From the NCBI GenBank assembly GCA_949298405.1, contig CASFWA010000001.1, forward strand, positions 231 to 64,230: a stretch of 64,000 nucleotides of DNA. The letters are read 5' to 3'. Every line of letters begins with the position of its first letter. The first letter of the stretch is position 1. Made by a program: the position numbers and the translations under genes. Source of the stretch: an uncultured Pseudomonadota bacterium. Its GTDB lineage: Bacteria; Pseudomonadota; Alphaproteobacteria; Rs-D84. Shown piece after piece: positions 19,001-19,459 of this stretch. The notes beneath the pieces were generated by a model. That model was not told the DNA's origin, ran no database searches, and saw only the letters and a program-made list of their open reading frames with translations.

Positions 19001-19459
19001 ATGAAGCAAGAATCAGGTCGTTCTTTAATTGAAGTAATTGGGGTACTGGCTATTGCGGGTGTAATGAGCGCCAGCGCAATTGGTATTTACAATGTAATTC
19101 GCAATAACCAAGCCAGAAAAATCGCTTCTATGGAAATAGAACAAATTGCCAAAAACACAAAAATCTTAATGGGTGCACGCGGTGATTATACAGGTATTTC
19201 TGTTGATTATTTAATAAAAGCGGGCGCGTTAAAAAACAACCAGGCTCCAATCGGTGACACAAACTGGTCTGTCGAAGCAATAAATGACGGCAAAGGTTTT
19301 TCAATAAATTTATCGGGTCTATCATCTGGTGAATGTGAATATTTTGCAACTGCTGCACCAAAATGGGCTACAAAAGTTCTAATTAACGGTTTTGAAAAAG
19401 ATATTAATACAAGTTGTTTTTCAACAGACACAAATAAGATTTCTTTTACCGTGGAATAA
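19001..19459 (+). CDS. Small type IV pilin-like protein (class III signal G|RSLIE; C-terminal Cys pair)
   Basis: MKQESG-RSLIEVIGVLAIAGVMSASAIGIY with Glu at +5; two Cys near the C-terminus (CEYF...NTSCF) like a pilin D-region disulfide. RBS AAGGAT 8 nt upstream of the ATG at 19001. Confidence 0.65.
   Translation: MKQESGRSLIEVIGVLAIAGVMSASAIGIYNVIRNNQARKIASMEIEQIAKNTKILMGARGDYTGISVDYLIKAGALKNNQAPIGDTNWSVEAINDGKGFSINLSGLSSGECEYFATAAPKWATKVLINGFEKDINTSCFSTDTNKISFTVE

Follow-up and report, generated by a model that had tools for sequence, protein, structure and literature searches.

The conjugative thin pilus of R64 is otherwise found on plasmids and genomic islands, where a type IV secretion system relies on it to keep mating pairs stable; its adhesin PilV has a size of about 400–450 amino acids (aa). 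The adhesin role of PilV has been described (PMC9045228), and the Pfam family PF06864 marks the R64 thin-pilus variant (PMC3984277). Type IVa pilins are defined by a leader of no more than 10 residues and a length of about 150–175 residues, while a textbook type IVb pilin has 180–240 residues, a leader of 13–30 residues and Met, Leu, Trp or Ser at the +1 position (PMC9045228). N-methyl-Phe at +1 and a globular domain of the Pfam Pilin family also belong to the IVa description, as a T2SSG domain and the GspG fold belong to that of GspG.

Here we describe a small type IV pilin encoded in a 64-kb stretch of DNA (hereafter the window) from Candidatus Enterousia (Rs-D84), a host with genomes of about 0.9 Mb. 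The pilin family blurs the IVa/IVb split, as it combines the size and leader of IVa pilins with a predicted fold and a machinery of the IVb kind and with Arg at +1. The Enterousia pilin probably belongs to a chromosomal, scattered, R64-like IVb system in a genome-reduced gut symbiont.

The R64/IncI PilS kin, with PilS of S. Typhi, PilS2 of PAPI-1 and Tfp7 of B. pseudomallei, are close to the Enterousia pilin in that PilS is the only Pfam domain over the globular part and PilS structures are among the top fold matches. As in R64, the genes for PilO2, PilP, ATPase and platform stand in the R64 gene order in relatives of the window, and the small pilin is paired with pilin-like proteins of about 400–450 aa, which recall PilV. 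Unlike R64, where a single operon on a plasmid or island carries the system, the Enterousia genes are dispersed among the housekeeping genes of the chromosome, the sequence examined yielded no shufflon, pilN secretin, pilT or pilU, and the large pilin-like proteins have no similarity to PilV. Unlike PilS, the Enterousia pilin has a leader of 6 residues followed by Arg or Ala at +1. With TcpA, CofA and BfpA, which gave its best structural (TMq ~0.7) and profile (E ~1e-13) matches, it shares the N-terminal motif x-S/T-L-I/L-E and the Cys pair that bounds the D-region. In contrast to these pilins, however, its prepilin has only 152 residues and its predicted mature form 146 rather than ~180–240, its leader 6 rather than 13–30, and its +1 residue is Arg (Ala in some Enterousia) rather than Met or Leu; no accessory genes of the tcp, cof or bfp type were seen in the sequence examined. 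The IVa pilins PilA and PilE agree with it in leader length, overall size and a class III signal with Glu5, but differ in the class of the globular fold, in Phe at +1, in their match to Pfam Pilin and in their PilMNOPQ machinery. GspG agrees with it in size and short leader, and the associated ATPase and platform score best on GspE and GspF models; the Enterousia protein nevertheless has no T2SSG domain and no fold match to GspG, and it has a Cys pair and accessory proteins of the PilO2/PilP type.

The prepilin gene and its probable transcription unit

The following features of the window were recognised in and around the prepilin gene.

17440..18984, + strand: dnaX, directly upstream, probably co-transcribed (Pfam domains on gene calls)
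18989..18993, + strand: Shine-Dalgarno sequence AAGGA, 7 nt 5' of the ATG (read from the sequence)
19001..19459, + strand: prepilin gene, 152 aa, predicted type IVb-class pilin (ORF, gene calls, AF2, Foldseek, profiles)
19001..19018, + strand: class III signal leader MKQESG, last residue Gly(-1) (leader pattern; predicted cleavage)
19025..19174, + strand: alpha-1 helix, residues 9–58 (DSSP on the AF2 model, H9-58)
19334..19417, + strand: D-region between Cys112 and Cys139 (Cys conservation; putative disulfide)
19459..20136, + strand: OmpA-like peptidoglycan-binding lipoprotein, lipobox LTGC (Pfam OmpA E = 3.7e-14; NCBIfam YiaD-like)
20214..20876, + strand: skp/OmpH chaperone gene, last before the terminator (PF03938 on gene calls)
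20890..20917, + strand: intrinsic-terminator-like hairpin (12-bp stem with 6 GC pairs, then a T-rich tail)

The prepilin gene runs on the + strand from the ATG at 19001 to a TAA stop codon at 19457–19459, and 16 nt separate its ATG from the dnaX stop codon (18982–18984). The Shine-Dalgarno sequence has counterparts in orthologous loci, where a purine-rich element lies at the same distance from the start. A mechanical list of open reading frames opens this frame at a TTG at 18950, inside dnaX. This longer frame is an artefact, since independent gene calls on three assemblies give the 152-aa product and nearly all of 120 database homologues begin with M-x-x-E/Q-x-G. The proposal of an earlier note on this DNA, that a small gene with a good ribosome-binding site starts at 19001 and need not overlap the 3' end of dnaX, is in agreement with these results. 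There are 395 homologues of the pilin in the protein collection and relatives or orthologues in at least 207 species-level genomes; the dN/dS values against orthologues range from 0.02 to 0.15, in the helix and the globular part alike. The gene is thus clearly real and evolves under purifying selection.

The wider family was collected by a search of 1.84 billion cluster representatives, which returned 479 clusters at E ≤ 1e-3, and 104 diverse members with a mean column identity of about 14% were taken for domain and profile analysis. The prepilin begins with the leader MKQESG, after which comes RSLIEVIGVLAIAGVMSA; counted from the Gly, a Glu occupies +5, as had been read before. All 121 sequences of an alignment have E11 and at least 90% have G6, and in the 104 diverse relatives G6, R7 and E11 are all invariant. 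Arg occupies +1 in each of the diverse representatives of alignment A4 (103 of 103), while Enterousia has Arg or Ala there. Cleavage after Gly6 would leave a mature protein of 146 residues. Hydropathy peaks at residues 8–26, and the first ~20 residues of the alpha-1 helix are the hydrophobic segment of the membrane and the fibre core. The C-terminal Cys pair already pointed out in the sequence is a family feature: 116 of 120 homologues contain two Cys and no more, and Cys112 (codon 19334–19336) and Cys139 (codon 19415–19417) are each conserved in at least 90% of the 104 relatives. Cys112 aligns with the first Cys of the pair in TcpA, by what we take to be the residue numbering of that pair.

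All 80 species loci, which were retrieved through the dnaX-linked pilin itself, have dnaX directly upstream and the OmpA-like lipoprotein gene directly downstream of the pilin gene. Where orthologous loci were inspected, dnaX and the pilin gene are 0–20 nt apart, and in some species they overlap in a TAATG. On the other side the start of the lipoprotein gene overlaps the pilin stop codon by 1 nt in the window, and the two genes overlap or abut across species. The hairpin after skp is the only terminator-like element downstream of the pilin gene. Because of this tight spacing and the lack of a terminator until after skp, the pilin gene probably lies inside a transcription unit made up of dnaX, pilin, ompA and skp. 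A promoter scan found none upstream of the pilin gene in the window and gave inconsistent results across species, which is weak evidence in AT-rich DNA. The gene had been described as stand-alone; this is correct in that no assembly genes lie nearby, but not in that it is packed between dnaX and the OmpA-like gene in 80 of 80 species.

The window as a whole is chromosomal housekeeping DNA, with dnaX, skp, lpxD, fabZ, infB, nusA, lptD, pnp, mutS and parAB. Several of its other genes were noted in passing. The gene at 17016–17360 (+), shortly before dnaX on the side of the large pilin-like genes, encodes a small acidic protein that matches DUF4167 weakly and has a DS-rich repetitive tail; 76 of the 80 species loci have kept it, as have 83 of the 91 loci in total. 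Two adjoining, slightly overlapping genes for 171-aa proteins without a Pfam match lie directly downstream of mutS (47441–48449, −). At 3666–10933 a BspA-type leucine-rich-repeat protein is flanked by large secreted proteins of 728 and 1052 aa, the former with only a sub-threshold TFIIA match and the latter with none; the secreted proteins of this region are possibly surface or adhesion proteins.

Fold and family of the pilin

The AF2 model of the pilin, built with 121 sequences, reached a pLDDT of 83 and a pTM of 0.72. It shows a 50-residue alpha-1 helix (9–58), a beta-sheet with four main strands and a further helix (109–118) that bears Cys112, and it has the lollipop shape of pilins, that is, a long alpha-1 helix on an antiparallel beta-sheet. 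When the model was compared with the PDB by Foldseek, all significant matches were pilins and the best 16 were all type IVb pilins, headed by TcpA (E = 2e-5, TMq 0.71) and followed by CofA and PilS of Salmonella Typhi. No IVa pilin and no GspG chain occurred among the significant matches.

Sequence profiles gave a similar picture. The Pfam family PilS scored 21.9 bits on the window pilin, just under its cut-off of 22.0, whereas Pfam Pilin and T2SSG (PF08334) gave no match at E ≤ 1 and no NCBIfam model matched. Among the 104 diverse relatives, 53 matched PilS (best 3.9e-19) and 45 matched Bundlin (best 8.4e-21) at a threshold of E ≤ 0.01. A profile of the family found BfpA (1e-13), TcpA (2e-13), CofA (6e-8) and PilS (2e-6) in the PDB with alignments that extend over the globular domain, while its matches to IVa pilins were limited to the N-terminal helix. 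Significance was reached with the diverse alignment; phmmer and profile searches with the close homologues alone gave weak PDB matches. Since the structural matches and the profile matches over the globular domain are to TcpA, CofA, PilS and bundlin, the protein is, by sequence profile and predicted fold, a type IV pilin of the IVb rather than the IVa class. At E ≤ 0.01, PilS or Bundlin recognises only about half of the 104 relatives, and such systems are easily missed by automatic annotation because curated models cover the pilin family poorly.

The pilin-like nature of the protein, which the earlier note had proposed, is thus borne out by both the modelled fold and the profiles. Its likening of the D-region to that of type IVa pilins is not, as the globular part matches IVb pilins; what holds of the IVa resemblance is leader length and overall size, and what fails is fold, profile and +1 residue. 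That the protein is a IVa pilin after all is extremely improbable. A leader of 6 residues and a length of 152 aa do fit the IVa definition (PMC9045228), but this identity is contradicted by the fold and profile results given above. In addition, the +1 residue is Arg instead of Phe, and the machinery seen in relatives is of the R64 type, while no PilM/N/O/P/Q set was seen in the sequence examined.

Three giant pilin-like genes

A tightly packed operon on the opposite strand (11981–16868) starts at 16868, 2.1 kb from the pilin gene, consistent with the distance of about 2 kb given before. It contains three genes for unusually large pilin-like proteins, here called giants.

15513..16868, − strand: giant pilin-like gene, 451 aa, N-terminus MQKQSG then NFLLQ, Gln at +5 (motif scan, ORF)
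14324..15526, − strand: giant pilin-like gene, 400 aa, 15-residue leader, G then SSMLE (ORF, motif scan)
13005..14327, − strand: giant pilin-like gene, 440 aa, 17-residue leader, G then SMLIE (ORF, gene calls, motif scan)
11981..12996, − strand: two small genes that close the giant-pilin operon (kept in 69 species loci)

The two closing genes encode a 175-aa protein with zinc-ribbon, transmembrane and FxLYD-DUF3426 features and a 163-aa secreted protein. A pseudouridine synthase gene adjoins the operon.

The 451-aa giant is present in 76 species loci, and the three giants lie within the upstream flank of the pilin gene in 68 of the 70 species loci with enough sequence, so that the co-occurrence of the pilin with the genes at 13005–16868, which the earlier note had put forward as a check, was indeed found. 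The median identity to the window copies is 62.5% for the small pilin and 59–62% for the giants, compared with 75–86% for their housekeeping neighbours (OmpA-like lipoprotein 75%, dnaX 80%, lpxD 86%). The small pilin and the giants therefore evolve at the same, faster rate. A motif scan found the class III signal in only four genes of the window, the small pilin and the three giants. Given their co-location, their equal rate and this restricted set of signal-bearing genes, it is plausible that the giants belong to the same apparatus as the small pilin.

The giants resemble neither one another nor the small pilin beyond the N-terminus, and sequence searches of the PDB with all three matched at most the N-terminal helix. 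The 400-aa giant gave weak matches to GspI and N_methyl, confined to its N-terminus, and no giant matched Shufflon_N in Pfam. The AF2 model of the 440-aa giant (56 homologues) had a pLDDT of 45; residues 19–160 formed a helix and a sheet at pLDDT 55–75, the rest was unmodelled, and the first ~160 residues are its only pilin-like part. Foldseek with this model returned nothing meaningful. The minor pilins PilV, CofB and TcpB are comparable in size to the giants with their 400–451 aa. From this size and the N-terminal motif, we consider the giants likely to be tip subunits of the PilV/CofB kind.

Assembly genes in related genomes

Pfam searches of every substantial ORF in the 64-kb window revealed no pilus ATPase, platform, secretin or peptidase, and the 10 kb past the end of the window hold housekeeping genes and no assembly genes. 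The ATPase was found in related loci, by tblastn of these loci with an approximate PilT query that gave one match. In the relative L081 (JAWPOC010000011.1), four assembly genes follow directly after pilin-ompA-skp: a PAP_PilO gene (PF06864) and genes for a 234-aa protein, a 543-aa T2SSE ATPase and a 356-aa T2SSF platform. The counterpart of the 234-aa protein in other loci matches TIGR03021 PilP with E = 1e-7, just below the cut-off. The order PilO2, PilP, ATPase, platform (O-P-Q-R) is the same in the relatives L081, L095, L096/L097 and L100. The ATPase has at least 120 homologues at 85–100% identity, and the source names given are all Alphaproteobacteria MAGs.

The four-gene cluster and a pilin orthologue occur together in three Enterousia MAGs. 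In the first, that of L081, the two adjoin as described above; in a second, a Candidatus Enterousia MAG, they share a 134,839-bp contig (JAZLCH010000005.1; cluster L095, pilin locus L046) and lie ~85 kb apart; in the third, JAZTWE01, the cluster (L100) and the pilin locus (L064) are on different contigs. The dnaX of JAZTWE01 is 82% identical to that of the window, as close as most congeners. The window's own genome may encode this machinery as well. The remaining parts of a pilus machine were sought in a small and redundant part of these genomes: no prepilin peptidase was found with PilD in tblastn, no secretin with a signature regular expression, and neither the PilN lipoprotein secretin nor the PilU peptidase nor a PilV shufflon adhesin was seen in this partial sequence. 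Directly upstream of the pilO2-like gene, two species encode a 138-aa lipoprotein of no known family (L095 7517–7933, L096 6437–6853), which may be an accessory part of the pilus machine.

The ATPase and platform score best on the GspE and GspF models, with 213.7 and 80.9 bits, far below the cut-offs, which raises the question of whether the four pilin-like proteins form a short periplasmic pseudopilus that expels proteins as a type II secretion system does, with no extended surface pilus. One giant lacks Glu5, as GspK does, another has the weak N-terminal match to GspI, and family members carry the label 'type II secretion system protein' in some sources; some IVb pili, moreover, also secrete proteins. 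We nevertheless regard a pseudopilus as improbable. The pilin gave no T2SSG match at E ≤ 1 and GspG is not among its significant fold matches, although the PDB has many GspG structures. PilO2 (PF06864) and PilP (TIGR03021) are pilus-specific and not components of type II secretion, and no secretin, GspC, GspL or GspM was seen in the part of the genomes covered.

The peptidase and secretin searches bear on another reading, in which the protein is a relic pilin, neither cleaved nor polymerised, that stays anchored in the inner membrane as a periplasmic envelope protein together with the OmpA-like lipoprotein and Skp. The invariant linkage to the lipoprotein gene and the envelope-biogenesis neighbours skp, lpxD and fabZ fit such a role, as does the failure to find a peptidase or secretin in the small, redundant part of the genomes covered, and Arg(+1) could be the positive-inside residue of a signal anchor. 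On balance this reading is hardly probable, because G(-1) and E(+5) are invariant in relatives as diverse as the 104 studied, at a mean column identity of ~14%, and are hard to explain without recognition by a peptidase and packing in a fibre. A highly conserved, dedicated ATPase/platform cluster also persists in genomes of only ~0.9 Mb, and linkage to OmpA genes is absent in distant members of the family.

Proposed assembly and significance for the host

We consider it reasonably probable that the protein is a IVb-class prepilin which is polymerised by a machine similar to that of the R64 thin pilus, encoded elsewhere, with the giants as likely tip or adhesin subunits. With its hydrophobic N-terminal helix the prepilin would enter the inner membrane, and a prepilin peptidase would cut after Gly6 to leave Arg at +1. 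The actin-like PilO2-type protein, the PilP-like protein, the ATPase of the GspE/PilB type and the GspF-type platform, with genes elsewhere in the chromosome, would then polymerise the 146-residue subunit; its helices would build the fibre core, in which Glu5 may neutralise the neighbouring N-terminus. By analogy with PilV, CofB and TcpB, the three giants, encoded 2 kb away, may serve as adhesins or primers at the tip of the fibre. Most plausibly, the fibre would attach the cell to other cells or to surfaces. Cleavage, assembly, the link to the giants, attachment and the presence of the machinery in the window's own genome are predicted; gene, conservation, fold class, IVb homology and the relatives' assembly cluster are the findings on which they build.

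Such a function would suit what is known of the host. The related genomes come from human and animal guts, where Candidatus Enterousia is common; they are MAGs that bear the name Candidatus Enterousia or that of uncultured Alphaproteobacteria or Rickettsiales, and one of them is a circular chromosome of 958,618 bp. Enterousia is placed in the order Rs-D84 with genomes of 0.75–1.0 Mb, and lacks a TCA cycle, respiratory chains and standard nutrient transporters, so that published analyses suggest a partner-dependent life (PMC12306168). These analyses name no attachment device, and type IV pili are given for another lineage and not for Rs-D84 (PMC12306168). We found no literature description of pili in Enterousia or Rs-D84, and a matching pilus-assembly motor is unreported in published genome surveys of the group. 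Despite heavy gene loss, a conserved pilin, three giants and a dedicated assembly motor have been retained; they are obvious candidates for an attachment device, and we propose them as a candidate contact apparatus of an abundant, uncultured and partner-dependent gut bacterium.

Components of type IV secretion were also encountered in these genomes. A VirD4/TraG coupling protein is encoded among housekeeping genes 3 kb from the pilin gene (window 22494–24701, −), and VirB4 lies 6–8 kb from the assembly cluster in relatives (L095 1–1384, with VirB3; L096 1–1873). These positions suggest a scattered chromosomal type IV secretion system. The chromosomal R64-type pilus and VirB/VirD4 could then together form a contact apparatus for holding other bacteria and exchanging material with them, and the invariant Arg(+1) would mark a separate IVb branch with a peptidase specificity of its own. 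We offer this joint reading as a speculation that is distinctly unlikely to hold in full.

Small pilin paralogues and the main subunit

The earlier note saw in the dnaX-linked pilin a possible major subunit. We give a little less than an even chance to its being the main shaft subunit, and think it rather unlikely that it is a conserved subunit of low abundance. The gene is packed tightly behind dnaX and has neither a promoter-like site nor a terminator to itself, an uncommon arrangement for a major pilin that is strongly expressed. The Enterousia MAG JAZTWE01, which also has the dnaX-linked pilin, encodes another small pilin. This paralogue (L100 18085–18549; MIQESGRSMIEMLGVLAIMG...) has 154 aa, two Cys and 28% identity to the dnaX-linked protein, and lies beside uvrC, from which it diverges across an intergenic region of ~50 nt. 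It could be the major subunit, with the dnaX-linked protein as a minor, adaptor or priming pilin that links it to the giant tip proteins. The uvrC-linked group comprises more clusters at 50% identity and includes a five-copy tandem array in a related lineage, as is often the case for major pilins, and the dnaX-linked gene adjoins the giants, follows a housekeeping gene closely and has no promoter that could be detected. We are doubtful of this arrangement, since the uvrC-linked paralogue is known from at least one Enterousia MAG, which is not of the window's species, whereas the dnaX-linked gene is the one pilin in all 80 loci (retrieved, as stated, through this gene). The size and fold of the dnaX-linked protein also match those of major IVb pilins, and promoter scans in AT-rich DNA weigh little.

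Other arrangements of the family were seen outside the dnaX-linked loci. In the alphaproteobacterial MAG GCA_017642585.1, five tandem small pilin paralogues of 150–169 aa follow uvrC (L087 8377–11145), with no assembly genes nearby. In another locus a T7-like prophage region contains a pilin-family gene (P0163; L090 10001–10489), which is placed amid genes for head-tail connector, capsid and terminase.
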